From NCBI GenBank assembly GCA_038046605.1, contig JBBSVW010000013.1:1-36248 (forward strand): DNA of 36,248 nucleotides, given 5' to 3'. Shown here one piece after another: positions 1 through 18,093 of this stretch. Origin of the DNA: Candidatus Micrarchaeota archaeon (GTDB taxonomy: Archaea > Micrarchaeota > Micrarchaeia > Norongarragalinales > SBBD01). A program made the translations under genes and the position numbers. The notes under the pieces are model-generated. The model did not search any database, was not told the origin of the DNA, and saw only the letters and a list, made by a program, of their open reading frames with translations. The stretch's first letter is position 1. The number at the start of each line of letters is the position of its first letter.

Positions 1-167
1 TAAAAACAGCTGAAAAGTAGTTAAATTGGTGCGTTTTTTAAGCAATCACCTATTTAATTGAGGCAGGCGCCTTGGATCCATGCCGGGATTGTCTTGGGAT
101 TGCGGGCTTGCCATGGCCCCAAACGATATGCTTATTAGAAAAGATGGGCAAAGGGAGTTGATAAGGA

Positions 168-440
168 ATGGCAACCGACGAGGAAATATTGCAATTGTGG
201 GAGAAACTCCCAAAGAAAAAAGAACGGGCGCAGGACATAGTCCGCCTTTACCGCCTAGCTGAAAGTGCAGGCAGGCAGGAAGCTGTTTTGGCGCTTGAAA
301 AGGAACTTTTATTGGATGCCACAATTGAATCCGCCCTTAAGACCTTTGGATGGGGCAGGAACAGCAGAGCGAGCATAATTACAACAAGGGCGCTTCTCAG
401 GGAGGCGGCAAGGATTGCTATAATGAAAGTTGGGAAATGA
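168..440 (+). CDS. Small hypothetical helical protein (90 aa)
   Basis: ATG ORF with purine-rich upstream sequence and protein-like composition; no motif recognised. Confidence 0.6.
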   Translation: MATDEEILQLWEKLPKKKERAQDIVRLYRLAESAGRQEAVLALEKELLLDATIESALKTFGWGRNSRASIITTRALLREAARIAIMKVGK

Positions 441-490
441 AGCAAGCCAAAATCCGGCGGCAAACTGCCAAATTATCATAGATTATAAGT

Positions 491-559
491 ATCAGTCCGT
501 CCACAAACTGTAAAGTGCCCTGCCTGACCGCCGAAGCACACGTAGTTTCCGAGGAAATG
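491..559. repeat. Repeat family A, copy 1 (intergenic ~70 bp)
   Basis: ATCAGTCCGTCC...CTGACCGCCGAAGCACACGTAGTTTCCGAGGAAATG; 61/69 identical to 2794-2862; ends 11 nt from the ATPase stop codon. Confidence 0.95.
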
Positions 560-570
560 AAGCGGTTCAG

Positions 571-1605
571 TCATACGAGGTAGGTTGCTTTAAGGAAAAG
601 CGGATCCGACAAGTAATATTTTTGGTTCCTTTTTTCAATGAACGAATAGGCAACCAGTTTTTCCAATGCAAAATTGAACAAGTTTGGATTAAGCTGTTTC
701 CCGATAGTTTTGCCCGCCATATTGCGCAATTCGTCCCAGCTTATCCCTCCGGCATTCCGCAATATGGCCAGATAAAGTTTCCTGTTTTTTGTTTTCTTTA
801 AGAAATGAACCAGTTCGGAAGCGGCGATGCGCGCCGCACTTTCGCTTGTTTTTTTCAGAGCGTCCCTATTTTTCCTGATTCCCTTTTCATAGCCGTACAG
901 GGTCAGCCAGCCAATTAAGCCGTCCAGCTCGGCTTGCGCTTCGGCGATCTCTTCATCAGACGCCTTGAACCCGACCTGCGAAAACCCTTTTTTCAGATAA
1001 TCCATGGAAGCGTTCCGGTCAAGCCGGTTCATTACCACCTTAATGATCTCACGGCCAAAAAGGGGGTGGTCCGAATCCTCCTCCCCAAGGATCTCCTCCA
1101 CAAGCCCTATCTCGCTTCCGGATATGACAAAGGAGATTTGGGGAAACCGGTCGTAAAAGTAGGATAATACGTCAGCCAAATCGCTTTTTTTCATGCGCTG
1201 GACCTCGTCAATGAATACGCAGATGCGCCCGGCTTTCATTATCCTTCGTTCTATCTCACTTTGGCTTTCAGAACCGAGTTTTATATCGAACCCCACCCCA
1301 AACGCAGAAACATTGAGGCTTTCAATTTTTCCGAATATTTTCGGCTTCCCAAATTTTGCGGTTTCATAAATCGCCCCGAAAATTTCCTTTTTCGGATCGT
1401 TCACTATCCTTCCGTCAAGCCATAGTTTCAAGCCGTTTGCTTCATTGTAGACCAAATTGAGCAAACTGGTCTTTCCCACGCGCCTGATTCCCACAACGGC
1501 AATGATTTTCTCTTTTCTCTCGAGGGCTTTCTTAACCTGCCCGTACTCGTAATCATAGTTGTAAAAATCCGCTTTCCTGCTTTTGGGCTCAATTTCAAAG
1601 TACAT
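571..1605 (-). CDS. Archaeal-type P-loop ATPase (ATPase_2/AAA family) with probable C-terminal winged helix
   Basis: Walker A GIRRVGKT, Walker B VFIDEVQ, SGSE and LFGR motifs; TTTATAAA box at 1627-1634. Confidence 0.85.
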   Translation of the reverse strand: MYFEIEPKSRKADFYNYDYEYGQVKKALERKEKIIAVVGIRRVGKTSLLNLVYNEANGLKLWLDGRIVNDPKKEIFGAIYETAKFGKPKIFGKIESLNVSAFGVGFDIKLGSESQSEIERRIMKAGRICVFIDEVQRMKKSDLADVLSYFYDRFPQISFVISGSEIGLVEEILGEEDSDHPLFGREIIKVVMNRLDRNASMDYLKKGFSQVGFKASDEEIAEAQAELDGLIGWLTLYGYEKGIRKNRDALKKTSESAARIAASELVHFLKKTKNRKLYLAILRNAGGISWDELRNMAGKTIGKQLNPNLFNFALEKLVAYSFIEKRNQKYYLSDPLFLKATYLV

Positions 1606-1626
1606 GCCATCCTTTCAACGCGCATG

Positions 1627-1672
1627 TTTATAAAGTTAAGTATATTGCCATTTTGATTAACTTAAGTTAAGT
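1627..1672. promoter_or_regulatory. TATA box plus palindromic putative operator of the ATPase gene
   Basis: TTTATAAA 1627-1634; AAGTTAAGT at 1633-1641 and 1664-1672; perfect palindrome TTAACTTAAGTTAA 1657-1670. Confidence 0.55.
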
Positions 1673-1738
1673 GGACGCTGGGTGAAAGTTATCCTATCTG
1701 ACCGCCAAAAGACAGGTCATTTCCGAGGAAATGGGGTG
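1672..1738. repeat. Repeat family A, copy 2 (diverged)
   Basis: TGGACGCTGGGTG-N13-CTGACCGCC...CATTTCCGAGGAAATGGGGTG; anchors GGTG, CTGACC and TTTCCGAGGAAATG have the same spacing as in copy 3; abuts the Fic stop codon at 1740. Confidence 0.85.
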
Positions 1739-1739
1739 A

Positions 1740-2702
1740 CTACAAAGTTGCTTTCCGTAGTCCCCTCTTTTTCAGCAGCTTTTTCAATTCACGATACTCC
1801 TTCAGCATCAGTTCGATAGTGGATCGCAAATTATACTCGCGCTCATATGCCTGCAAGGATGCGTAATACTCGTGCCGGTGTTTATACTCTATGTTAAGCG
1901 GAGGTAGATTATGCTTCAGCAGTATATTGTTGAGCAATAGTCTTCCCACTCTGCCGTTACCGTCTTGGAAGGGATGGATATTCTCGAATTGGTTGTGAAC
2001 TACCGCGGCTAAAACCAAAGGCGGATATTTTTTCTTGTTTTTGCCATACCAAACCACCAACTCCTCCAAAAGGCTTTTGACCTGGGTCGAAGGCGCTCCC
2101 CGATGGATGATGTTCCCAAACTGGTCTGATACAACTACTTCCACTCCTCTTGGCCGTACCGTGCCTGCGTAGGATTTGGAATTTTCGAAAACGATCCGGT
2201 GAAGCGCCAGGATCAGTTCAAGCGATACGTGCTCCTTGGTTTTTCTGATATAATCCACCGCCTTGGCAACGCCGTACGTTTCGGAAATATCCTCCTTGGG
2301 CTTGTTCGGCCACTTGTCCTTCTCCAGAATGCCGCTAACTTCCCGTTCCTCTAGAGACGACCCCTCGATTGCATTGGTGTTGTAGGTAAATGCTTCCGTG
2401 AATTTTTGCCAATCCTCTTCCGAAAGATGCGTTATTTTGAGGGCTATTCCCGCCTCCAAAGATTTTAACTCCGCCAGCTCTTCCTTTGAAACAACGGTTT
2501 TGAACGGGTCATGGATGAAACGGCTTGCATTGATCCTTTCAAAGAGTTTGGCTTTGATTTCTTTCTCGCGCTGCAGCAGTTCTTCCCTACTTAGGTTTGC
2601 ACCCAAATAAACTCGCAATTTCCGGACTTTCCCTCCCTTCCGGTAAGAGTGTGCCAAGTAGAACTTCCTTCCTCCTTTTCCTTTCCGGACTTCAACGTGC
2701 AT
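1740..2702 (-). CDS. Fic-domain protein (AMPylase-type) with basic N-terminal extension
   Basis: Canonical HPFQDGNGRVGR motif; N-terminal inhibitory-type motif TNAIEG. Confidence 0.92.
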   Translation of the reverse strand: MHVEVRKGKGGRKFYLAHSYRKGGKVRKLRVYLGANLSREELLQREKEIKAKLFERINASRFIHDPFKTVVSKEELAELKSLEAGIALKITHLSEEDWQKFTEAFTYNTNAIEGSSLEEREVSGILEKDKWPNKPKEDISETYGVAKAVDYIRKTKEHVSLELILALHRIVFENSKSYAGTVRPRGVEVVVSDQFGNIIHRGAPSTQVKSLLEELVVWYGKNKKKYPPLVLAAVVHNQFENIHPFQDGNGRVGRLLLNNILLKHNLPPLNIEYKHRHEYYASLQAYEREYNLRSTIELMLKEYRELKKLLKKRGLRKATL

Positions 2703-2713
2703 GGTTCAATTAG

Positions 2714-2753
2714 GTGACTACAATTTATAAATATTTGCATTAAATGTGACTAC
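2714..2753. promoter_or_regulatory. TATA box flanked by GTGACTAC direct repeats upstream of Fic gene 1
   Basis: GTGACTAC at 2714-2721 and 2746-2753; TTTATAAA at 2724-2731. Confidence 0.5.
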
Positions 2754-2793
2754 GCCTATTTAAACCTTGCTCCGGTCGTCTAACTAAAGTTGC

Positions 2794-2867
2794 ATCAGTC
2801 CGTCCGCTAGGTGTGAAGTGCTCTGCCTGACCGCTGAAGCACACGTTGTTTCCGAGGAAATGGGGTG
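2794..2867. repeat. Repeat family A, copy 3
   Basis: ATCAGTCCGTCCGCTAGGTGTGAAGTGCTCTGCCTGACCGCTGAAGCACACGTTGTTTCCGAGGAAATGGGGTG; directly abuts the stop codon at 2868-2870. Confidence 0.95.
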
Positions 2868-3800
2868 TCAGATGCTTTCCATGAAAAAGCCGTATACAAA
2901 CCGGACGAAAGGCCGCTCGTCCTTGTTTTCCACGGATCCCACCAGCGCATCAAAATACGCCCTAGGATCCTTGGAAATGTTCAATAGTGGATAGTTATTG
3001 TCGAAAAGCGCCTTGTTCAGGAGCAGGCGTGAAACCCGCTTATTGCCGTCCTCGAAGGGATGGATCATGTAGAAGCGTAGATGGAATAGGGCGGCCAGTT
3101 CTATGGCGTTAAGTTTCCCCAGATTGGCGCCGTACCATTCAATGAGCTCCGCTATTTTCTTCCCAATTTCTGCAGGTGCCAAAGGCCTGAAGCCTATTTC
3201 TTCCGTTTTCTCATAGCTCTTAAGGTAAATGTGGGCTTGATTTCTGCGGAAGCTGCCGGGGCTTTTTTCCCCATATCCTGCCATGATAATACTGTGGAGC
3301 TCGAGCATGAAATCCTTGCCGATGCCTTTCTTGCTTTCTTTGACAAACCGGAGTCCCTTTATCATATCCAGCGCAACTCGCAGGTTTTCGTCCCTTAGGC
3401 TTTTTGCATTTTGAAGGCTGAACCTATAGGCCAGCTCAGCATCCTGCTTGGTAATCGGGACTCCTTCTGTAGAAAGGGTGGTATAAACGAAGTTCACTGT
3501 ATCGATTTCGTCTTTCTCGTCCCGAGCGGATTTTCCGAGGTTTTGAATTTTGGCGAGATAGCGCCTCCGCCTCTTTTCCGCTTCGATGAGTTCTTCCTTT
3601 GAAAGGTAAATTCTTGAAGCATCGTTCAGAAGATCGCCGTATATTTTATCAAATAACTCGGCATTTTTCCTTTGGAGGATGCCTTTAGAGGGAATTCTTT
3701 TACCAAGAAAAATCGAATAGACTTTAGGCTTCTCCAGCCGGATCGATTCCTCCAAATAGTAGTACTGCTGCCCGTTGACCAGTTTCCTGCGGATGCCCAT
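2868..3800 (-). CDS. Fic/Doc-domain protein with basic N-terminal extension
   Basis: HPFEDGNKRVSR motif; TLSTEG inhibitory-type motif; same architecture as 1740-2702. Confidence 0.9.
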   Translation of the reverse strand: MGIRRKLVNGQQYYYLEESIRLEKPKVYSIFLGKRIPSKGILQRKNAELFDKIYGDLLNDASRIYLSKEELIEAEKRRRRYLAKIQNLGKSARDEKDEIDTVNFVYTTLSTEGVPITKQDAELAYRFSLQNAKSLRDENLRVALDMIKGLRFVKESKKGIGKDFMLELHSIIMAGYGEKSPGSFRRNQAHIYLKSYEKTEEIGFRPLAPAEIGKKIAELIEWYGANLGKLNAIELAALFHLRFYMIHPFEDGNKRVSRLLLNKALFDNNYPLLNISKDPRAYFDALVGSVENKDERPFVRFVYGFFMESI

Positions 3801-3820
3801 GCTACTCTTTGGATGGCAAG

Positions 3821-3916
3821 ATTATTAAACTTATCTTACATTTCAAAGCCAAAATGTATGCCTAAAAAATACGAGCCTAGGTTTTATCTTACATCTGTTA
3901 AACAAATTGTAAGATA
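3821..3916. promoter_or_regulatory. Promoter region of Fic gene 2 with repeated TATCTTACA boxes
   Basis: TTATCTTACAT at 3831-3841 and 3884-3894; inverted TGTAAGATA at 3908-3916; AT-rich TATA-like tract at 3821-3829. Confidence 0.5.
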
Positions 3917-3922
3917 TGAGTT

Positions 3923-3982
3923 TGGACGCTAGGTGTGAAGTGCTTGGACTGACCGGTGAAGCACACGTCGTTTGCAGGAAAT
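3923..3982. repeat. Repeat family A, copy 4
   Basis: TGGACGCTAGGTGTGAAGTGCTTGGACTGACCGGTGAAGCACACGTCGTTTGCAGGAAAT; shares CGCTAGGTGTGAAGTGCT and TGAAGCACACGT exactly with copy 3. Confidence 0.9.
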
Positions 3983-4183
3983 TCAAATTCAACTTCGGGA
4001 AGCCAACCAGGAAACAGAAGCAAAAATCCCGAATTGAATTGGAGGAGGCAAAGAAAACCACAAATAAGCTCGAATGGGGCAGGAATTACAATATAAGTGT
4101 TGAGTTCTCCTACAACAAAGGGGGTTACTGCAGGAGGATCGTTTTCAGCCTGCATTTTAAGTCTTTTGCTCAACTATTAATGT

Positions 4184-5350
4184 ATGATTCCTGAAAAGAT
4201 TGCTGAAGGACTAAAACACGGAAAAACCCCCTTTGGAATGCATCCAATATATTCTCACACTTCAGTTAGGGCGCTCATCAATGAAGAATTCACACACCAA
4301 ATTGATGTGGCAAATGATGCTGCAAGGAAACTTGGTTTTGACATCAGGCTTAGCGCAACAGATGAACCAAGAGACATTATTGCCAAATCAGGGAAGGCGT
4401 TCGTAGAAACTCACGAGCATATAAAGCGGGCTGAACGGGGCCACGAAACAGAACTGATTGAACTTGCAAAAAAGGCAGTTATAGATCTTCAAGGGACAAC
4501 ACCTTCGCAAGTCGAATCATTATTTGGAAGCAGGGTTGAAAAAAGAGAACTCCCGGATACCCCTAATGACGATCCCCTCGAAACACCTAAGGAAAAAAAA
4601 AGCGGATTAGGAAGCTTGCTTGGAAAATTTAAAAGGAAGAAGCCTAACATAAAGTTAGCTGCGTGGATTAGAAAAAGGCAAACCCATGACTTGCTAACCC
4701 AAGGTGTTGCCATAAGCCATTTGACGGGCGGGCCAATAACTGTTGAAGCTGATCTTAGGAAAATCGATCCCAGATTACCGGAATTATACCGGCTGCATAC
4801 AAGCTTGGCTCAATTGAGCAATTTCGTTCATTTGACGGTACCGCCTAACTTTAGGCAGCCGCCGCGAACATATGGAGGAAGATCCGGATTGAAATGGAGG
4901 GAAGGCGAAGTCCAGGCAGAAGTTAAAGCAACCGATTTCCCAACCCTCGTCCATGAAATGTCCAAAGGCGTTGTTGAAGCCAACATGGCTCATGCACTTC
5001 CCCGCGAAGGGGACCTTAAGCCTGACGAAGTAGACATATTCAATAAACATACAAAAAACAGGGATGCGGAGATTTGGCAATTTCTTCTCGGCCCTGCATT
5101 TGCAAGAAGGATTGAGGCCGCAATAAGACAAACCGACCTGCCTATTCCGGACGCAAAAAATCCCGAGCAAGCGCATCTGCATAGGAGAGTACTGTTCTCC
5201 TTAATTTCCGAAAGGGAATTGCATTCCATTGCACCACAACTTATATCATCCAAACAGGGAAGCCTAGAATGGGAGGCAGCAGTTGTTAATCTTAAAGAGG
5301 CGATGCTACGCGCTAAAGAAAGATTCGAAGGTGGAAAGAGATGGGTGTGA
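4184..5350 (+). CDS. Hypothetical protein (388 aa) with zincin-like HExxK..E segment
   Basis: Long ORF; FPTLVHEMSKGVVE motif; function not recognised. Confidence 0.8.
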   Translation: MIPEKIAEGLKHGKTPFGMHPIYSHTSVRALINEEFTHQIDVANDAARKLGFDIRLSATDEPRDIIAKSGKAFVETHEHIKRAERGHETELIELAKKAVIDLQGTTPSQVESLFGSRVEKRELPDTPNDDPLETPKEKKSGLGSLLGKFKRKKPNIKLAAWIRKRQTHDLLTQGVAISHLTGGPITVEADLRKIDPRLPELYRLHTSLAQLSNFVHLTVPPNFRQPPRTYGGRSGLKWREGEVQAEVKATDFPTLVHEMSKGVVEANMAHALPREGDLKPDEVDIFNKHTKNRDAEIWQFLLGPAFARRIEAAIRQTDLPIPDAKNPEQAHLHRRVLFSLISERELHSIAPQLISSKQGSLEWEAAVVNLKEAMLRAKERFEGGKRWV

Positions 5351-5634
5351 CAATAAGGGCACGGCGGCCATTTGGCCCTCCAGAACCGGAACCTCAACCG
5401 CAAAGAATACCTGAAAGACAACCGGCAAAGCCAGTAAGAACATTGCCTCCTGGCGCTCCCGAACCTGTTGAGCCCTGGAAACAACCTCAACCCGTGCCGG
5501 AAAGGAAACCCAGAAGAAGAATTCAACCCCTAAGCCCACCCAAACCCGCCCCTACAACCGAGCCTGAAAAGGACCATTGGAATGAAAGAGTATATGCGTA
5601 CATGGCATTAATCCGCAGAATGAAAAGAAATTAG
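5341..5634 (+). CDS. Small proline-rich hypothetical protein
   Basis: Overlaps upstream stop by 10 nt, AGGTGG upstream; PEPEPQP low-complexity region then a short basic helix. Confidence 0.6.
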   Translation: MGVTIRARRPFGPPEPEPQPQRIPERQPAKPVRTLPPGAPEPVEPWKQPQPVPERKPRRRIQPLSPPKPAPTTEPEKDHWNERVYAYMALIRRMKRN

Positions 5635-8177
5635 GCGGCTTTCAGAAGATAATGCCCTGAGGAACTTAGCGATTCAAAACGCTTATTTCGTACACTTTCC
5701 GGAAAACTGATGGCAACTTTTTCTGAATTGCCATAATTTTTAAGAAAACCATCCCGGACGCTTGGATGGTTGCTTATATAGAAAGGAGTCGCATTCGAAG
5801 TAAGAGCCGTAAAGCCAGCTCCCCTTGCTCGCTCCCATAATTTCTCGATAAATTCCTTAGTAAAGTGCTCCATATCCACATTTATAGGGGTCTGTATTGC
5901 ATCAATATGGAGGGTTTTCCCATGTTGCGTCCGGCCTTCAATCAAGTATACATTGCCGACCCAGTTTGGCCCAAGAAAAACTTTCAGGTTATGCGCTTCG
6001 GGAATTGCAAACCTGTCGGGGGAGTATTGCCCGCAATCTTTTGAGGTGCCCCGGGTAGTAATATCTTCGGGGCTAGGCGTCGGATCGAAAATATAATTCA
6101 ACTGCTTTCCAGATGAGCTGCTTGTTGTTTTCTTGTAAAGATCTTCAATTTCAGTCTGCTTTTTTCTAGTTATCGGATTGGCTCCCCGGAGTTCGTCCAG
6201 CAAATTTTGGAATAGCTTTTTTCTCACATCGCCTTCCCCGGCGTATGTTTTCATTTCGGCAATACGCGCTCCATATTCTCGCTTTAACTCGGCCAATTGC
6301 GCGGAGGTTTCTGCAATCGCAGCTGATTTCCCCTCAGAAGAGGATAATGCATTTACTTTTCTTGTACCCTCCTCTTTGGCCATATCAATAAGCTGCTGAT
6401 ATTCTGTCTGCAAATCCGCTGCGATTTTTTCTGGAGAGGCCCTTTGAGAATAATAGGATTCAAGCATACCAAACGATGGCTCGAGATGGCTTTCTATGCC
6501 GCTTTCTATTAAAATTTTCCCATGCTTGGCGATAAGATGCTTTAGCCGCTTGCTATCTGAAAGTGTCTCGGTCTTTATGTGCATCATCCTATCCGAATAG
6601 AGCTGGTAGAGACCCGCCAGCACCTGTTGAGGTTCATCAGAGCGTAATTCGTTTCGTACTATTGGGTCTTGCTCAATAGCGATCAGTTCATGAACGTCAT
6701 GCAAAAGATATCGGTTATCCTTGCCCTCGTCCTGCTTCTGCTGTAGATCAAGTGCAACCTCCTTTAGCAGGCCAATTCCAATCGTTTTCATCGCCAAAGC
6801 CTTCGCAGCTTTGAGCTTCAGAAGGGGCGATAGCTCGGAAATTGCCTGCCCCAGAAAAGAAGCGGCGCTTTTGCCCTTTAAGGCATCCGCATGAAATCTT
6901 ACTGCGTCTGCAACAGTTTTAGGAAATGTGAGTTTTTCCACAACAGCTGTAACTGCAAAGGGATTGAATGGAGTGGGTTTTCGATCCCAATACCCCCGGT
7001 ATCGATGGGCTGCAATCTGGGACCGCCTCATTTCGCGGAACAAGTCCGATTCCAATTCGTCCTCAAGGTTAGAATTGCCGCTCTCGACATTTTGGCTGGC
7101 AATAGGCAATTTTTTCAGAAGGGCTGAAGGCTCCGGATGATTCAGATACATCTTTGTTACATATGGCGTATTTGGTGCTCCCGCCCTAAGTAAATCGGAC
7201 TGGACAGCGGCAAGCTTGCTGAAATCACTTCCTGTTTCACTTAATGATGAAAAAAAGTTGCCTATGGAAGCAGTGGCGGATATTCCGTTTTTCATGCCTA
7301 AACTTACGATTCTTGATAGGCTCTTCAAATCTTCAGGCGAGGTTATCTTGTGCACCCCTATAACTGTTGCAGCATTGGCAGTACCAGCAACTTTTTCTAG
7401 CCCAGCAACCGCTTCGATTTTTTTAGGGATATCGTCATAGTTCTCCACGCGGGTATTGGAAACGATATCCGAAAGATATCTTAATGTTTGAACCGGCAGC
7501 CCAACCTCGGGGGTAGTTTGTTTTATGACATTCTTAACTAAACCAGCCACCCGTTCAACATGTGAAACATTGGTACTTCCCCCACTAAAAGGAACGGCAA
7601 ATATGGGGAGAAAAACCGCTTCGGCATCCTTTTTTGGTGCTCCGAAAACGGAGGCTGCTTTTGCGAGTTGGTCTATCTGGTCCCAGATTGCGCCCCTGAC
7701 ATCGTCCCTTGAAAAGCCCCTTTCTATGAAAAATCCGCTTACCGCTTTAGCATTCTGGGAAAGCCGCCATGCGCGCCATCTCCTCCCAAACGGCATCTGC
7801 TCTGCAGAGGGCCTTTCACGGCGAGGCCCCATGATTTCATTACTGAGCCTGGACAAATTATCTGCTGGAAATGCGCCAGTATTTTTTTCCAATATTTCGC
7901 GCACTTGAGCGCTGACCTGGGCCACCCGTTCCACCGTTACATCATGGGGGCCTAATGCTACAGAAAGTATTGGTGACAATGCTTCAGCCAATTGCCCCCG
8001 AGAAAGATCATGCATGCGATCCGCAAGCTTATAGGTACGGCGCAACTCCGGCCATACTTGCGTTCGCACCGCTTTATCGGAAAGCCCTCGTTCCAGGAAA
8101 ATGCCGCTTCCCCTAATTGCATGATCGAGCACGCTTGGAAATAAAAGCCCTTCAAGTGCTTTTCCTGCCCTAGCCAT
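5631..8177 (-). CDS. Large hypothetical protein (848 aa): helical/coiled-coil body and C-terminal alpha/beta (possibly GNAT-like) domain
   Basis: Long ORF with GGCGGT upstream; C-terminal RGTSKDC...VGNVYL...LHIDAIQ...LWERARGAGF pattern. Confidence 0.8.
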   Translation of the reverse strand: MARAGKALEGLLFPSVLDHAIRGSGIFLERGLSDKAVRTQVWPELRRTYKLADRMHDLSRGQLAEALSPILSVALGPHDVTVERVAQVSAQVREILEKNTGAFPADNLSRLSNEIMGPRRERPSAEQMPFGRRWRAWRLSQNAKAVSGFFIERGFSRDDVRGAIWDQIDQLAKAASVFGAPKKDAEAVFLPIFAVPFSGGSTNVSHVERVAGLVKNVIKQTTPEVGLPVQTLRYLSDIVSNTRVENYDDIPKKIEAVAGLEKVAGTANAATVIGVHKITSPEDLKSLSRIVSLGMKNGISATASIGNFFSSLSETGSDFSKLAAVQSDLLRAGAPNTPYVTKMYLNHPEPSALLKKLPIASQNVESGNSNLEDELESDLFREMRRSQIAAHRYRGYWDRKPTPFNPFAVTAVVEKLTFPKTVADAVRFHADALKGKSAASFLGQAISELSPLLKLKAAKALAMKTIGIGLLKEVALDLQQKQDEGKDNRYLLHDVHELIAIEQDPIVRNELRSDEPQQVLAGLYQLYSDRMMHIKTETLSDSKRLKHLIAKHGKILIESGIESHLEPSFGMLESYYSQRASPEKIAADLQTEYQQLIDMAKEEGTRKVNALSSSEGKSAAIAETSAQLAELKREYGARIAEMKTYAGEGDVRKKLFQNLLDELRGANPITRKKQTEIEDLYKKTTSSSSGKQLNYIFDPTPSPEDITTRGTSKDCGQYSPDRFAIPEAHNLKVFLGPNWVGNVYLIEGRTQHGKTLHIDAIQTPINVDMEHFTKEFIEKLWERARGAGFTALTSNATPFYISNHPSVRDGFLKNYGNSEKVAISFPESVRNKRFESLSSSGHYLLKAA

Positions 8178-8242
8178 TTATACTACCGCCCAGAAGAATA
8201 TTCCTGCTTACTTTATTATATTTAACAGGTAACTAATAAGGT

Positions 8243-9025
8243 ATGGACGAGCGCATACTCCGTTTTTTCGAGCAGCAACGGATCAAGGAGGATCGCACTC
8301 TTGGCTTTGATCTCGACCATTACCATGAGGAGCGTAATTTGGGAGGGGTAATGCTTCACGGACGTTTCAATACGATTGTTCCTGGGTGGGGACCGAGAAC
8401 GGAAATAGAAGGGCTCTCAAATTGGGTAAAAATCAACCATCATATAGCAATTCCATTCAAACTCGGTCGATGGAGGATTGGCAAGAGCCCGGCACAAAAG
8501 ATTTTCGATGCACTTTTCTCCGACCCAAACTTCGAACCGGCAAGGATGGGGCATAGCGGCAATTACGAGCCGATAAGGGATGTCGGGGAAATCAAGGCAA
8601 TTAAGAAGGCTGCGCCGAGGCAAATTAAGGATGCTCCACCAGGCCAGCCCGTTGAATTCGATTTGCTGTATTTTGCAAAACGTAACCAAGAGGCAACTCA
8701 TAGGATATTGGTGGAAATTGTGCCTAAATCGAAAGAGGATGCTTTGGGAAAAGGCATGGGATGGGTAAGGCTTCGGATTGTAAGGCCGATGCCCATTGAA
8801 CCTAGAATCAAAACAATGTCCGGCGGAATAATTGGTTCAAGGAGTTCTTTTCCTATTGCTGATTACGTTAATGGCAACCAGCATAACATTGAAAGCGAAA
8901 GGCAGACCATTTCTAGAATTATTAGCCATGTCAAGGAGGCTTTGAAGAAGCATGGCATTCCGACCGAAAATGTTTGGGAAAAGGAAGTTCATTATTTTGG
9001 GAACAAGGAAGAGGCGTATACTTAG
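8243..9025 (+). CDS. Hypothetical protein (260 aa)
   Basis: ORF divergent from 5631-8177 across an AT-rich TATA-containing spacer; no motif recognised. Confidence 0.75.
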   Translation: MDERILRFFEQQRIKEDRTLGFDLDHYHEERNLGGVMLHGRFNTIVPGWGPRTEIEGLSNWVKINHHIAIPFKLGRWRIGKSPAQKIFDALFSDPNFEPARMGHSGNYEPIRDVGEIKAIKKAAPRQIKDAPPGQPVEFDLLYFAKRNQEATHRILVEIVPKSKEDALGKGMGWVRLRIVRPMPIEPRIKTMSGGIIGSRSSFPIADYVNGNQHNIESERQTISRIISHVKEALKKHGIPTENVWEKEVHYFGNKEEAYT

Positions 9026-9212
9026 TAAACCGAATACTAGCTTCTGGCTTGTTGTTAAGCCCGGTCCTCGAATATGAAATCGATGCGGTTGCCTTCCCGA
9101 TGCATTCCAAGATCCTGAGGCAACTCTAGCGTGCTATTCCAGTTCAAATACCTTTAATGGCATTAGCTTCTCTTCGATTTGCACTTGGCTTTTGATGTGA
9201 ATAAAGGATATA

Positions 9213-9226
9213 CATCAGTCCGTCCG
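9213..9226. repeat. Repeat family A, isolated left arm (14 bp)
   Basis: CATCAGTCCGTCCG identical to 2793-2806; the 12-mer core also occurs at 491-502. Confidence 0.7.
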
Positions 9227-9297
9227 TCATTCCTCATCGCGTGAGCTCGGGAAACAGATTTTCATCATCTGGAAGAATTTATTCACAAAAGTAATTA

Positions 9298-9422
9298 AAG
9301 GGGTAGAGGCGACAACAAGGAGGGTTATGCAACATCAAACCTGTTTGGATGTTAGTATAGCAAAGCTCTACGTAACCCGGCAGGGCGATCATTCTCCCTT
9401 GGGGTTGGGGGTTACTCCCTTA
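9298..9422. repeat. Structured intergenic element, possible diverged copy of repeat family B
   Basis: AAGGGGTAGAGGCGACA matches the reverse complement of 10269-10285 at 14/17; TATGC-hairpin-TTAGTAT; CTCCCTTGGGGTTGG resembles 30627-30642. Confidence 0.4.
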
Positions 9423-9485
9423 GAGGTGTCAAATACTAATGCTTAAATATCGGGTTTGAGTAGGTAGTTAAGAGGTGTATTTTGA

Positions 9486-10184
9486 ATGGCAGATATTGCA
9501 GGTACATTCAGTTCTCCGGAGGCATTCATGCAGGGAATCACAGATGTGATCTGGAACTTTGTTGGGATGATGATCAATTTCATACCCAATCTCATCATGG
9601 CGGCAATCATCTTCGTGATTGGCTACCTGATTGCAATCGTGCTATCCAATGTCCTAAAGAAGGCGCTGGAGGCGGTGAAGTTTGAAAAATTGCTATCGCA
9701 GCACAAGATGGAGGATGCGCTATGGGGGGTCAAGATATCGCCCATATTCGTCAGGGTGTTCAAGTTCTACATCCTGCTAATCTTCCTCCAGGCGGCGGTT
9801 TCAAAATTGCAGCTTGGGACATTGACGGAATTCATCAACACGGTATTGCTTTACGCTCCGGCATACGTTGGCGCGTTTGTAATGCTTGTGATTGCGGCAA
9901 TGGTTGGCGAACTGGTGAAGGAAACCATCAAGGGAGTTGACGGAAAGTCGCGCTGGGTGGTTTTCATCGCTAGGGGCATGAAGTTTGTTGTGGTGTTCTT
10001 TGGGCTTGTTATGGGCCTAGGAGCAGTTGGCTTTAGGACTAGCCTTCTTGAGAACACATTCATAACAATCCTTCAAGCGTTCGCATACGGCATTGCGCTT
10101 GCAATTGGAATCGCTTTTGGGCTTGGCGGCCAGGAGGAGGCAAAGGCGATCGTTTCGGATGTGAAGAAGAAGGTCAATAAGTAA
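9486..10184 (+). CDS. CmpX-like / MscS-related TM-helix repeat membrane protein
   Basis: Repeated IPNLIMAAIIFVIG / YAPAYVGAFVML helices; C-terminal GIALAIGIAFGLGGQE; GAGGTG RBS. Confidence 0.8.
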   Translation: MADIAGTFSSPEAFMQGITDVIWNFVGMMINFIPNLIMAAIIFVIGYLIAIVLSNVLKKALEAVKFEKLLSQHKMEDALWGVKISPIFVRVFKFYILLIFLQAAVSKLQLGTLTEFINTVLLYAPAYVGAFVMLVIAAMVGELVKETIKGVDGKSRWVVFIARGMKFVVVFFGLVMGLGAVGFRTSLLENTFITILQAFAYGIALAIGIAFGLGGQEEAKAIVSDVKKKVNK

Positions 10185-11238: not shown

Positions 11239-11353
11239 AATGCAAATTGAACAAAGGGGAATTTTCGTATTTTATTTGAATAAGCGAGGTTAGCTTAGGC
11301 TACCCCCTTGCAAAATAATATCTTTGAATCCACATTTTGAGGTAAAAACAATT

Positions 11354-14300
11354 ATGGCTATAAGCAATCACCTAAAGGAACTGCAATTAAAGGTCGAGGA
11401 GGTGCTCCCAAAGGAGTGCGACCTAACCAAGATTGAAATAGAAGGGCCGCAGGTGGTCCTATATTTGAAGAACATGCGTGCATTCACAAACGATGAGAAT
11501 TTGATCACAAGGATTGCCTCGCACATCAGGAAAAAGGTCCTCCTAAGGAGCGATTCATCTGTTTTGATGTCTCCGGAAAAGGCAATGGAAGTGCTAAAGC
11601 AGCTTATTCCAAAGGAGGCGGGCGTAATGGATATCAGGTTCGATGCAACGTTTAATGAGGTAAATATCGAGGCGATGAAGCCGGGAGTCGTAATTGGGAA
11701 GAATGGATCCGTGTTAAAGAGCATTATTTTGGAAACCGCCTGGAGCCCTAAAGTTCTCCGCGCGCCCACATCCCCATCCGAAGTTGAAAAGGCAATACGC
11801 GCAGCCCTGCTAAATAACGCCGAGGACCGCAAAAAATTCCTCAATACCCTTGGGAAGAAGATGATGCAGGATGAGGCAAATCCGGAGTGGGTAAAAATCA
11901 CCGCCCTTGGGGGCTTTAAGGAAGTTGGAAGGAGCTGCATCCTATTGCAGACGAACAATAGCAATATCCTTCTTGATGTGGGGCTCAACGTAGACACTTC
12001 GGATAGCTCAAAATCCTACCCATACCTGAATGCCATGGGCCTTCAATTGGATCAGATTGATGCGGTTATCATTTCACATGCCCATCTCGACCACCAGGGA
12101 TTCTTGCCTTACCTTTATGCCTACGGGTATGAAGGGCCAACCTATTGCACGCCGCCAACAAGGGATTTGATGGTGCTTCTGCAGCAGGATTGTGTCAATG
12201 TCATTGCAAAGGAAGGAAGGACCCCGCCCTATACGGAAAAGGACATTAAGAAAATGCTAAATCATGTGATCGTGCGAAAATTTGGGGAGGTAACTGATAT
12301 CACTCCCAAGGTTCGATTCACATTCCATAATGCGGGCCATATTCTTGGAAGCGCCATGGTGCACTTGCATATTGGCGATGGTTTGCACAATCTCGTTTAT
12401 TCACTCGACTGGAAGACTCCGGTAACAGTAATAGATCCGCAAGATAATTTAAAGATCGTCGAAATAGGCAAGCTTTCCGACGAATTGATGGAAAAGAATG
12501 GATTTGAGGGGGATTACGTAGAACGATTGCAAAACCCGGGTGGATGGAGGACTATTGCATTCGACCCGCAAACCTATCAGCCAAAGGTAGTTCCCATTAC
12601 TTCTTTCATGAGGCATCCAATCAACGAAGCACTTTTTGAAATCACTACGAAGACTGGCCGGAAGGCGGTTGTGACTGCATCCCACAGCGTCTTTGCAGCT
12701 AAGGATGGGAAAATCGAGGCTGCAAAAGTTAAGGAGTTAAAAGTAGGGGATAGCATCATCGCACTTTCAAATGCTTCGGGGTTGCATGTTAAAGAGCCAA
12801 TAGTTGAATTGAACGAGACTGAATTCAATGTTTATTATAATAATAAATCAAAGTTGAATAGGCGCATTGGAGAGCTCGAAATCCAAGCCAAGTCATCCTT
12901 CCAAAATTGGGAGGAAGTAATGGTTTGGGTAAAGGACAGATATGAGAAAGGGCTTTATAAAAGCGAAATCGCAAAGCAGAGGCATTGCAAAGTTGCCCGC
13001 GTATCCTTAGCTTTTGCAAAATTAGGCATCCCTCAGCCGCCAAGAGTTGCCGCTATCCTTCCACAGGAATTCGAGGTTACTTCCGAATTTTCAAAATTCC
13101 TTGGATATTTTGCTTCCGAAGGAAGCACTAATGGAAATTCGGTTGTGATAACTAATGACGACCAAAAGGTGTTAGATTTCTGCGAAGGGGCAATAGCGCC
13201 TTTGTTCAATTGCGGCATTTCGAAGTTGGATGGGGAAACTCGCTTTCACTCAAAATCTTTGAAGAAATTAATCACGGTGCTTGGCGGCATGGGCACCGCG
13301 CATACCAAACGAGTGCCAGCAACTATCCTCTCTGCGCCGGATAAGGTAAAATCCGCATTTTTGGAAGGCTATTTCGACGGCGATGGCTGCTTTAGCATAA
13401 GATCAAGCGGCCAATCCATAAGCTGCACTTCAAAGAACAAATGGTTAATTGAAGACGTTGGCTACATGCTTCTTAGCCTTGGAATGCCTGCAACTTACCA
13501 GTTTAACAAAACCAACACGATGCATACCCTTTCCATTTACGGCCGCGAGGCAATGAATAAATTCGTCGAGAAAATAAAGGTTGGGAATTGGGAAAACGCC
13601 TTGCATGCCATACCCCAAATAGGCTCAAAAAGTGCATTTTGGGGGAAAGTGCCTATTGTTTCACTTTCCCAAGATACGCAGGCACAGCTTAGGCATACTT
13701 CTTACAGAGCGGCGAGGAGCATAGGATTAAGCAGGCCGGAATTGCAGGTTGCAACATTTCTTGAAAAACAAATGCTTGCTGCACCTTTCTTGTTCGAAGA
13801 AATCACATCTATAAAGGAAGTGGAATCCTCTTCGAAATATGTTTATGATTTCTCAGTTGAAGGATATGAGAATTTCCTAGGTGGATTTGGGGGACTTTTC
13901 CTTCACAATACCGGCGACATCAAATTCGGAAGGACGAACCTTTTTGATCCGGCGGATATCAGGTTCCCGCGCGTGGATACAATCATGATGGAAAGCACTT
14001 ATGGGGGGCCCATGGATGCAAAGCCAAGGCTTGAGGAAAGCGAGCAGAAACTGGTGAATGCGATCCGTGAAACAATTGCAAACCGCGGGAAGGTTTTGAT
14101 TCCGGTATTGGCCGTTGGAAGGGCGCAGGAAGTCATGCTCATAATGGAAAAATACATGCGCAACGAGGATGTGCCAATTTACATCGACGGGATGGTTAGG
14201 GAAGCTTCCGCAATCCATACGGTTTATCCGGAGTATTTGCGCAGGGATGTGCAAAGGAGGATTTTGCAGAATGATTCACCCTTTGATAAGCCAATGTTTC

Positions 14301-14758
14301 GAAGCGCAATTGGAATGGATAGGCAAAGCATCGTCGAATCCGATGATCCGGCGATAATAATTGCAACATCGGGAATGCTTTCAGGCGGGCCATCGGTGGA
14401 ATTCCTTAAAATGATGGCTCCAGACCCTAAGAATTCATTGATATTCGTAGGATACCAAGCCCCGCTTAGCCTGGGGAGAAAACTTTTAAACGGCGATAAG
14501 GAAGTGCCAATACTAAAAAACAATAAATTGGATAAGCTTATTGTCAACTTGAAGGTCGCAAATGTGGATGGGTTTTCGGGGCACTCGGACCGCACGCAAT
14601 TGATCAACTTCGCGCGCGCAATCAAGCCCCGCCCCTCGAAATTCTTCATGCTTCATGGGGAGGAGAGCAAGTGCGAGGATCTTGCAAGAACCATTGGGAA
14701 GATGCTGCATGTTGAAAGCCGCGCCCCGCAGGTGCTTGATTCGATGAGATTGAAGTGA
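11354..14758 (+). CDS. fttA: Beta-CASP ribonuclease aCPSF1 / transcription termination factor FttA, intein-containing
   Basis: N-terminal KH domains, LGGFKEVGRS, SHAHLDH, NAGHILGS, MESTYG, FSGHSD, HGE; GAGGT RBS favours ATG 11354; 631 aa after intein removal; follows psmB. Confidence 0.96.
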   Translation: MAISNHLKELQLKVEEVLPKECDLTKIEIEGPQVVLYLKNMRAFTNDENLITRIASHIRKKVLLRSDSSVLMSPEKAMEVLKQLIPKEAGVMDIRFDATFNEVNIEAMKPGVVIGKNGSVLKSIILETAWSPKVLRAPTSPSEVEKAIRAALLNNAEDRKKFLNTLGKKMMQDEANPEWVKITALGGFKEVGRSCILLQTNNSNILLDVGLNVDTSDSSKSYPYLNAMGLQLDQIDAVIISHAHLDHQGFLPYLYAYGYEGPTYCTPPTRDLMVLLQQDCVNVIAKEGRTPPYTEKDIKKMLNHVIVRKFGEVTDITPKVRFTFHNAGHILGSAMVHLHIGDGLHNLVYSLDWKTPVTVIDPQDNLKIVEIGKLSDELMEKNGFEGDYVERLQNPGGWRTIAFDPQTYQPKVVPITSFMRHPINEALFEITTKTGRKAVVTASHSVFAAKDGKIEAAKVKELKVGDSIIALSNASGLHVKEPIVELNETEFNVYYNNKSKLNRRIGELEIQAKSSFQNWEEVMVWVKDRYEKGLYKSEIAKQRHCKVARVSLAFAKLGIPQPPRVAAILPQEFEVTSEFSKFLGYFASEGSTNGNSVVITNDDQKVLDFCEGAIAPLFNCGISKLDGETRFHSKSLKKLITVLGGMGTAHTKRVPATILSAPDKVKSAFLEGYFDGDGCFSIRSSGQSISCTSKNKWLIEDVGYMLLSLGMPATYQFNKTNTMHTLSIYGREAMNKFVEKIKVGNWENALHAIPQIGSKSAFWGKVPIVSLSQDTQAQLRHTSYRAARSIGLSRPELQVATFLEKQMLAAPFLFEEITSIKEVESSSKYVYDFSVEGYENFLGGFGGLFLHNTGDIKFGRTNLFDPADIRFPRVDTIMMESTYGGPMDAKPRLEESEQKLVNAIRETIANRGKVLIPVLAVGRAQEVMLIMEKYMRNEDVPIYIDGMVREASAIHTVYPEYLRRDVQRRILQNDSPFDKPMFRSAIGMDRQSIVESDDPAIIIATSGMLSGGPSVEFLKMMAPDPKNSLIFVGYQAPLSLGRKLLNGDKEVPILKNNKLDKLIVNLKVANVDGFSGHSDRTQLINFARAIKPRPSKFFMLHGEESKCEDLARTIGKMLHVESRAPQVLDSMRLK
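12401..13909 (+). mobile_element. Intein (503 aa) with LAGLIDADG homing endonuclease
   Basis: Interrupts HNLVY|TGDIKF; starts SLDWKTP; block B VTASHSVF; FLGYFASEG and FLEGYFDGDG; block F VYDFSV; ends LHN before Thr. Confidence 0.95.
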
Positions 14759-17977: not shown

Positions 17978-18093
17978 TAGCGGAGGGTGGATTTGAACCA
18001 CCGGTCTTTACCCGAGGAAAGAACTAATAAAAATCAGTTCCGCCCTCTCCGGGTTATGAGCCCAGCGGGCACTCCTGGCTACCCTACCCCGCT
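17978..18093 (-). tRNA. Initiator tRNA-Met(CAT) with 41-nt intron at position 43/44
   Basis: Acceptor AGCGGGG/CTCCGCT with A1-U72; anticodon arm CTGGG-CTCATAA-CCCGG with 3 G-C pairs; T arm GGTGG-TTCAAAT-CCACC; 75 nt after intron removal. Confidence 0.95.
18008..18048 (-). other. tRNA intron with relaxed bulge-helix-bulge junction
   Basis: ACCC/GGGT central helix, bulges GG^A and AA^A, GAGG/CCTC intron helix, internal hairpin GGAACTGAT-TTTT-ATTAGTTCT. Confidence 0.88.

Follow-up and report, generated by a model that had tools for sequence, protein, structure and literature searches.

Near one end of a contig from a small groundwater archaeon of the Micrarchaeota, four copies of a single non-coding repeat alternate with three genes, one for an ATPase and two for Fic proteins. 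What are these repeats, and how did the genes come to lie between them? The DNA under study, here called the window, is a stretch of 36,248 nucleotides (nt; G000:C13:1-36248), G000 being the organism's own assembly (1.64 Mb, 106 contigs, 90.7% complete). The reading favoured here, with a probability of roughly two in three, is that the four repeats serve as attachment-type sites in a tandem array of cassettes, built onto the 3′ end of a conserved C/D-box small RNA (sRNA) gene, and that recombination takes place via a core sequence shared by the sites and the end of that gene.

A repeat search returns one family of four direct 69-nt copies at 491-559, 1665-1733, 2794-2862 and 3916-3984, spaced 1174, 1129 and 1122 nt apart. 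Identity to copy 1 is 61% for copy 2, 88% (61/69) for copy 3 and 67% for copy 4. Together with the gene calls, this bears out the alternation of same-orientation, non-coding copies with minus-strand ATPase, Fic and Fic genes that a first-pass annotation of the same DNA had described, as well as the 61/69 agreement it had counted between copies 1 and 3. A 36-nt pattern built from these two copies gives 2 matches against 0.00 expected (100 shuffles), and a profile that includes the copies of relatives scores the four window copies at E = 1e-12 to 4e-22. The full repeat is about 75-80 nt long, non-coding and on the same strand in all four copies. It consists of a left core of 13-14 nt (CATCAGTCCGTCCG) and an arm of about 60 nt, which contains a second C(A/T)GAC(C)G box and a TTCC-NN-GGAA palindrome. 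Copy 1 (486-566, plus strand; 486-564 and E = 1.3e-18 with the repeat model R1) has its core at 491-504 (ATCAGTCCGTCCAC, one mismatch), followed by an arm of about 62 nt ending in TTTCC-GA-GGAAA. Copy 2 (1665-1739, plus strand, E = 1.2e-13) has a degenerate core, an intact arm and a perfect 7-2-7 palindrome. The window's best copy is copy 3 (2791-2868, plus strand, E = 1.3e-22), in which a perfect core at 2794-2807 precedes the arm; in copy 4 (3911-3984, plus strand, E = 5.2e-16) the core is degenerate and the palindrome is damaged by the loss of 1 nt. The motifs noted earlier are thus largely confirmed: CTGACC is in register in 4/4 copies, and the palindrome is present in copies 1-3, with perfect 7+7 nt halves in copy 2. 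A GTGC...GCAC pair is indeed present in copies 1, 3 and 4, but it is not kept in relatives.

The repeats stand in a fixed relation to their cargo, three minus-strand genes. Cargo 1 is a 344-amino-acid (aa) ATPase (571-1605; ATPase_2/AAA_14, PADLOC candidates PDC-S01/S27), cargo 2 a 320-aa Fic protein (Fic320, 1740-2702) and cargo 3 a 310-aa Fic protein (Fic310, 2868-3800), the latter two matching SoFic/PDC-S04 in PADLOC. From the repeat's right end, as set by the profile, to the convergent stop codon there are 10, 5 and 4 nt (11, 1 and 0 nt by the first-pass coordinates, which had placed the copy ends near the cargo stops). Relatives and window together give a convergent stop within 15 nt or less in 17/36 copies with an intact arm end, and within 60 nt or less in 25/36. 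On the cargo strand, a T-rich stretch often comes after the core (by eye). Reading of the sequence also reveals TATA-like A/T-rich octamers 22-23 nt ahead of each cargo ATG (1628-1635, 2724-2731 and 3823-3829), a position that fits archaeal promoters of leaderless genes.

The array is anchored by a predicted C/D-box sRNA gene that is conserved among relatives. Outside the four copies, the leftmost 14 nt of the repeat recur once, as a core alone (ATCAGTCCGTCCGT) at 9214-9227 on the plus strand, upstream of a gene for an MscS-like protein; the flanking non-coding stretch is conserved in three genomes of the same genus (G001, G005, G004). On the other strand this core is the 3′ end of the sRNA gene (9213-9272, minus strand), so that it forms an attB-like end of the array. 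The gene has a C box ATGATGA, a D′ box CGAG, a C′ box ATGAGGA, a 12-nt guide (ATGACGGACGGA) and a D box CTGA; a further 12-nt guide lies between the C and D′ boxes. The repeat core is the reverse complement of the last 13-14 nt of the sRNA, which comprise the end of the D guide, the CUGA of the D box and a single further base. All four boxes and the 12-nt D guide are present in 12 aligned genomes, the D′ box reading CGAG in the window and CTGA in G005, G004 and G003. An Rfam scan of 9150-9400 aligns the family sR19 at full length with 30 bits (E = 1.4e-5), below its gathering score of 45; sR2, sR1 and sR3 also align at full length below their thresholds, and at gathering scores the scan gives no match for the sRNA. 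A target of the D guide was sought in the large- and small-subunit ribosomal RNAs of G003, G007 and G024, where none has two or fewer mismatches, or G-U pairs plus one mismatch, and in the eight tRNAs of G000 found by ARAGORN, a set that leaves out intron-bearing tRNAs, likewise with none. About 23 nt ahead of the C box, a TATA-like TTTAATTA (9292-9299, minus strand) belongs to a promoter motif, a stretch of about 40 nt upstream of the sRNA (9276-9320, ATTTATTCACAAAAGTAATTAAAGGGGTAG). This stretch has 14 genome matches in G000 and several in each congeneric genome, and probably represents a strong promoter that small RNA genes share.

Two points of the first-pass annotation have to be revised here. 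The system it described is not free-floating but tied to the 3′ end of the sRNA gene, the last 13-14 nt of that gene being the left end of the repeats. Likewise, its right border at copy 4 falls short, because the array extends 5.2 kb farther, to the core at 9214-9227. The variable region thus runs from 491 or before to 9227. It begins 490 nt from the contig end, and its outer (left) border in G000 is cut by that end. Over the first 50 nt or so of the window (1-55), contigs of the source run are 2-4 times deeper than over the remainder (36 and 17 versus 8.4) and branch there; the contig probably ends in another repeated sequence. Beyond the array lies a conserved chromosomal flank, comprising the 232-aa MscS-like gene (9486-10184, plus strand), a 208-aa gene and the gene for FttA, syntenic in G001, G005, G004, G003 and G006.

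Profiles of the repeat (R1) and of the sRNA (R2) were run on 68 genomes of the order Norongarragalinales, R1 also on a sample of 151 genomes of the class. The repeat is found in 19/68 genomes of the order (6/10 in family f1, 11/26 in f11 and 1/12 in f9), mostly with 1-8 copies per genome, and in 27/151 of the class, other orders included. The sRNA is more widespread, with 49/68 genomes of the order and 19/22 of the high-quality ones. A strict repeat pattern detects 9 stretches in a collection of genome contigs (6 in Micrarchaeota-type bins and 3 bacterial ones without a profile match) and 6 in a collection of metagenome contigs, two of them true and one the window's own record; viral contigs give 0 matches. 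For layout, the count covered 39 copies at E < 1e-5, on 24 contigs that bear the repeat. The sRNA is on 14 of these contigs, always on the predicted side and on the strand opposite to the repeats, with no contrary case; wherever both are on a contig, the array lies on the 3′ side of the sRNA and in one orientation. In other orders, three of 11 further stretches carry the sRNA, with the same predicted layout. The core co-varies with the resident sRNA: in family f1 it reads CGGACGGACTGAT in sRNA and repeats alike, and in three genomes of f11 (G032, G045, G062) it reads CGGACGGTCTGAC in both. The arm of about 60 bp, for its part, is conserved across orders in which the housekeeping protein PurA is only 39-47% identical.

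One pair of genomes offers a comparison of an empty with an occupied site. In G040 the sRNA is directly followed by a gene of 324 aa. In G062, a Fic gene and a repeat lie between flanks shared with G040 (59%, 51% and 72% aa identity), and the core is present on both sides.

Cargo content turns over even among close relatives. Within the window's genus (g1) the flank is well kept, at 83-91% aa identity for FttA, 83-88% for the 208-aa gene and 56-79% for the MscS-like gene, and the cassette adjacent to the sRNA is different in 5/5 congeneric genomes (G000, G001, G005, G004, G003). In G000 an ORFan block comes after the sRNA, then Fic310, Fic320 and the ATPase. In G001 the order is a short unit, Fic320, a reversed Fic gene and a 92+121-aa pair, then aldehyde dehydrogenase, GTP cyclohydrolase II and a TrmB-like gene. 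G005 has open reading frames (ORFs) of 105 and 173 aa, the former in a cluster of ArsR-type helix-turn-helix proteins, G004 a UvrA-like ABC ATPase, and G003 two weak repeats with a 149-aa ORF. Other cargo in relatives includes AAA_14/DUF4143 ATPases, a racemase, metallo-beta-lactamase-fold and flavodiiron-like proteins, VapB-like small pairs and several ORFs without a family. Fixed gene content in relatives, which the first-pass annotation had named as grounds for abandoning the cassette idea, is therefore not what is seen.

The same cargo is also shared widely. Ten cargo Fic genes fall into one BLAST cluster. Fic320 is 86% identical to its counterpart in G001 and 74% to those in G045 and G182, and Fic310 is 68% identical to those of G055/G061 and 67% to that of G182, a genome of another order in which the two Fic types occur in reversed order relative to the sRNA. 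The 344-aa ATPase shares 74.7% with a repeat-flanked gene of a different genus (G009). Across orders, small ORFs of G152 match those of G001, G009 and G045 at 85-88%, its Fic gene matches that of G062 at 83%, and an ATPase of G143 matches those of G009 and G061 at 81-82%. With PurA and FttA as yardsticks, the window's PurA is only 39-47% identical to that of other-order genomes, compared with 74-88% for the cargo; within the order, cargo at 68-75% compares with PurA at 50-53% and FttA at 65-76%. The excess of cargo identity over PurA across orders, together with the reversed Fic order in G182, is read as evidence for horizontal movement of the cassettes. The earlier description of a cassette-type array of promoter-bearing accessory genes holds up well, given the TATA-like octamers, the PADLOC matches, the turnover in close relatives and the sharing in distant ones.

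How might such an array arise? Under the favoured reading, a circular cassette consisting of core, arm and a cargo gene with its own promoter would undergo conservative site-specific recombination, its core pairing with the copy of the core in which the sRNA gene ends. Insertion would leave the sRNA gene intact, duplicate the core and push older cassettes outward. The arm would provide a binding platform for the recombinase or its helpers, and the recombinase would work in trans. The first-pass annotation had named the 2-nt-centred palindrome as a candidate crossover or binding site; for the crossover the shared core, at the other end of the repeat, is the better candidate, and the palindrome looks more likely to be a binding site. 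Because no recombinase gene is found and 2/4 cores are degenerate, the array in G000 may now be static. Contigs of four public runs compared with 1-9600 report no joints, and being contigs only they speak neither for nor against excision; the loose ends that two runs of another study show at 2792 and 2832 come from other repeat copies in related organisms. Fine mapping of the cassette borders from homologous cassettes was tried and gives a blurred result, because all repeats are about 64% alike.

Several observations weigh against this reading. All genomes compared are metagenome bins, in which repeats are prone to assembly error. Half of the window cores are degenerate, as said, and the core differs from the sRNA by one mismatch in G036, G057 and G060. 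Ten of the 24 repeat contigs lack the sRNA; eight of these are either short or break off close by, but the other two, G056:C15 and G060:C60, are long contigs. The occupied site of G062 has about 95 extra, unexplained nt between the duplicated core and the flank common to G040. Furthermore, when homologous cargo from different genomes is compared, the adjacent repeats, whether upstream or downstream, resemble each other no more than the background does (1491 inter-locus pairs), while repeats within a genome are more similar than repeats between genomes (0.73 versus 0.64; 0/2000 label shuffles reach this). A simple model in which each cassette carries its own site does not predict sites that follow the host, and site homogenisation after insertion, or local assembly of cassettes, must be added to it. 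Finally, the enzyme is missing. PF00589 (Phage_integrase) and PF00239 (Resolvase) have 0 matches in the window and in the whole G000 assembly, which extends the first-pass statement that no recombinase is encoded in cis; ten ORFs scanned from five arrays of other orders contain no recombinase domain; and the repeat or its core occurs in only 2/20 integrase-bearing stretches of relatives (G052 and G062).

These two cases supply what clues there are to an enzyme. In G052, a degenerate site, with core, GCCTGA box and TTTCC..GGAAA palindrome extending across about 170 nt, is located 190 nt upstream of the gene for a 389-aa tyrosine integrase with Phage_integrase, SAM-like N and C-terminal zinc ribbon domains, and in G062 a homologue lies 4 kb from the sRNA. 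With this one adjacency, the tyrosine integrase of G052 (about 390 aa) is the sole candidate for the enzyme. A relative in G060, from a group of about 400 aa, is located beside an apparent tRNA 3′ end (by eye), and the group therefore includes ordinary integrases that target RNA genes. Viral contigs contain no relatives of the G052 integrase. A serine recombinase was also considered, prompted by the CC-GA-GG centre of the palindrome, which we take to be gix/hix-like; the idea was rejected, PF00239 being present in 8/68 genomes, absent from G000 and not beside arrays. The 388-aa ORF that follows copy 4 was suspected of being a hidden integrase, having the same geometry as in G052. It was rejected as well, since BLASTP against the G052 integrase gives E = 0.048 over 37 residues; the ORF has no Pfam match at E up to 1, and its protein atlas score of 0.81 or less is at noise level. 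In G092 (C1:340996-418977), a 25,989-bp unit that encodes a 398-aa tyrosine integrase is repeated exactly, three times in tandem, at a distance of 18 kb from the sRNA array; this is either an element integrated in tandem or a circular one that the assembly joined to the chromosome. As array enzymes these integrases are discounted: they belong to the separate tandem, and no core is present at its borders.

Of the rival explanations, the one that survives best is nevertheless unlikely. Serial integrase-bearing elements may have inserted at the sRNA gene and then lost their integrases and most of their genes, the repeats being leftover att sites with no dedicated system behind them and no present function. 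For islands anchored at tRNA genes, successive insertions in tandem with later decay have been documented (bioRxiv 10.1101/2020.12.28.424599; PMC8371274). An integrase beside a copy of the site in one relative (G052), the degeneracy of two window cores and of many copies elsewhere, and a genome without a recombinase would all fit such scars. However, an arm that persists between orders as distant as their PurA indicates argues for continuing constraint. Random deletion would not yield compact units of 0.65-1.2 kb, each with its own promoter and with a stop codon within 15 nt in nearly half of the copies counted. In addition, no integrase remnants or recombinase domains were found in the array ORFs scanned, and the same single-gene units recur in different orders.

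Could the repeat instead act at the level of RNA? A termination, RNA-stability or insulator module placed after autoregulated defence genes would account for repeats that come right after stop codons and for the T-rich stretch often seen after the core, and its likeness to the sRNA would reflect shared 3′-end formation. Operator-like repeats that accompany each cargo gene also make insulation a conceivable function: GTAGTCAC repeats flank the TATA-like octamer of Fic320, and TTATCTTACA repeats occur in the promoter region of Fic310. This explanation is improbable on structural grounds. Single-strand folding yields nothing stable (eight folds at -5.7 to -8.5 kcal/mol, with z between -0.40 and +1.40), RNAalifold on 18 copies from six genomes predicts zero consensus pairs, covariation of the palindrome and of the GTGC/GCAC pair is not above shuffles (119/500 reach the score), and the repeats have no match in an Rfam scan. 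Moreover, it leaves unexplained the restriction of arrays to the neighbourhood of a single sRNA gene, the co-variation of the core with that gene, and the relation between the empty and occupied sites.

Other identities of the repeat were excluded in turn. Copy 4 opens a 92-aa ORF and one frame seemed conserved, which suggested a coding fragment; mean identity hardly differs among codon positions (0.783/0.786/0.786), both strands have several open frames, and copy 2 contains stops. A tRNA fragment does not fit either, ARAGORN finding none in the window or in 23 loci near repeats. The end of a miniature inverted-repeat transposable element or insertion sequence is ruled out by four copies at one locus plus one partial copy in 1.64 Mb, all direct repeats. 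No further full copy was found in the assembly, so neither a dispersed mobile-element end nor a generic terminator, both named earlier as possible refutations, describes it. The partial copy (G000:C43:34740-34804, E = 1.2e-6 in the profile) lies in an island at G000:C43:31800-37900 that contains AbiEi/AbiEii, a 351-aa DUF6880-like gene, then the partial copy of the arm without a core, a ParE toxin and a DDE transposase.

A remnant of a canonical integron, that is a cluster of attC sites lacking an integrase (CALIN) as reported in archaeal metagenome bins, is very improbable. It would share the gene with a downstream site, the single orientation and the toxin or defence cargo. But RYYYAAC and GTTRRRY ends are both at the expected positions in 0/18 copies, in agreement with the first-pass observation that consistent attC ends are absent, the repeat has no hairpin potential, and the genome has no tyrosine recombinase. 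This repeat keeps its primary sequence across orders, which attC sites are not known to do. Equally hard to sustain is a role as an origin recognition box (ORB)-like site, in which the palindrome and the adjacent G/C run would recruit a replication initiator or an Orc1-type regulator to every cassette. All copies are direct repeats, spaced by about 1 kb in a gene array, unlike known origins, and the only orc1/cdc6-like gene found in G000 (G000:C81:168-1310) has no similar repeats beside it. The cargo-strand repeat end, CACCCC-ATTTCC-TC-GGAAA, does resemble Pyrococcus ORBs, but its dyad is centred on 2 nt instead of 3, and its C run is directly adjacent instead of at a distance of 8 nt. In the part of PMC1904270 used here, those boxes read CCCCC..ATTTCCACTGGAA, with 'TTCC' and 'GAA' perfectly conserved.

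Returning to attachment sites at the sRNA gene, the closest known systems are the tandem islands at the 3′ ends of tRNA and transfer-messenger RNA genes, for example the tycheposons of Prochlorococcus, together with integrase-less, cis-mobilisable elements flanked by att sites. As in the present array, an intact small-RNA gene stands at one end and a duplicate of its 3′ end flanks every unit, newer units are next to the RNA gene, relatives have empty sites, the accessory cargo is variable and some units lack an integrase. Of the features that define integrative islands, the intact RNA gene, the 3′-end duplicates and the empty site are found here, but an integrase encoded by the element is not. 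The target also differs, being a C/D-box sRNA gene, and so do the units, most of which are single genes of about 1 kb with a conserved arm fixed by the stop codon; no integrase remnants occur in the arrays examined. Plasmid pdif modules of Acinetobacter and other elements that exploit Xer resemble the array in their small gene modules, short recombination sites and lack of a recombinase of their own. Their sites are 28-bp 11-6-11 Xer sites in alternating orientation, in contrast to direct repeats of about 75 nt here, and no Xer-type recombinase was detected in G000. Integrons, whether sedentary chromosomal, CALIN or archaeal, are alike in having an array of genes and sites in one orientation, a single chromosomal platform, a recombinase outside the cassette, common toxin or defence cargo and sites homogenised within a genome; in the part of PMC9668308 consulted, within-genome similarity of attC is reported for chromosomal and archaeal integrons. 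The differences are that the present repeat has neither R″/R′ boxes nor a hairpin and keeps its sequence across orders, that insertion would occur at an sRNA end rather than at attI by intI, that the cassettes have their own promoters, and that no IntI was found; thus none of the marks of a canonical integron (attC ends, hairpin, IntI) is present. By analogy, the array appears integron-like in its layout and tRNA-island-like in its anchoring, with a site and a target that differ from both.

The first-pass annotation had suggested a possibly undescribed system of gene capture or shuffling. The type of array is supported by the relatives, but its novelty holds only within the limited literature searched. 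Narrow searches, which do not establish priority, turned up no account there of integration targeted to a C/D-box sRNA gene. The word 'sRNA' occurs 0 times in a review of archaeal tyrosine recombinases (PMC8371274), 'integrat' 0 times in a paper on Pyrobaculum sRNAs, and, supplementary data being outside the scope, the main text of PMC9668308, on archaeal integrons, does not contain 'Micrarchaeota' at all.

The remaining features of the window can be described briefly. The innermost segment, from copy 4 to the sRNA gene (3985-9213), contains ORFs of 388, 97, 848 and 260 aa that have no match in Pfam, NCBIfam or PADLOC, and no internal repeat; the block may derive from a larger element that once integrated here. 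The motif GTAGTCAC(C) surrounds the TATA-like box of Fic320, at 2708-2723 and 2741-2750, and occurs a third time at 1730-1745, across the stop codon of the gene. The motif is conserved in G001 and may be an autoregulatory operator of the Fic320 gene. The FttA/aCPSF1 gene (11324-14758, plus strand) encodes 1144 aa and harbors an intein with a LAGLIDADG domain at residues ~410-862; orthologues in G001, G005, G004, G003 and G006 have 631-640 aa and no intein. A 116-nt tRNA gene at 17978-18093 (minus strand) is matched by Rfam and missed by ARAGORN, and presumably contains an intron.

A bolder reading is possible, if somewhat less than an even bet: the system would be a Micrarchaeota analogue of the integron with an independent origin, in which the sRNA gene is the docking site, the cassettes are single genes with their own promoters, the site is double-stranded and about 75 bp long, the enzyme is not that of integrons, sites are homogenised per genome and cargo is traded between orders. 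If so, the invariance of the D guide might owe as much to a role in DNA attachment as to RNA guiding.

DPANN archaea have tiny genomes, and their acquisition of genes is poorly understood. At this locus, one conserved small-RNA gene marks a hotspot where accessory and defence-type genes turn over between species; the same genes are also present in different taxonomic orders. Core plus arm, together with the sRNA end, are concrete substrates for recombination assays. If the mechanism holds, the sRNA end and the site of about 75 bp would become a search handle for accessory gene pools and for the missing recombinase in metagenomes. C/D-box sRNA genes would then join tRNA genes as archaeal integration targets, and cassette capture would have a second solution that does not depend on attC.

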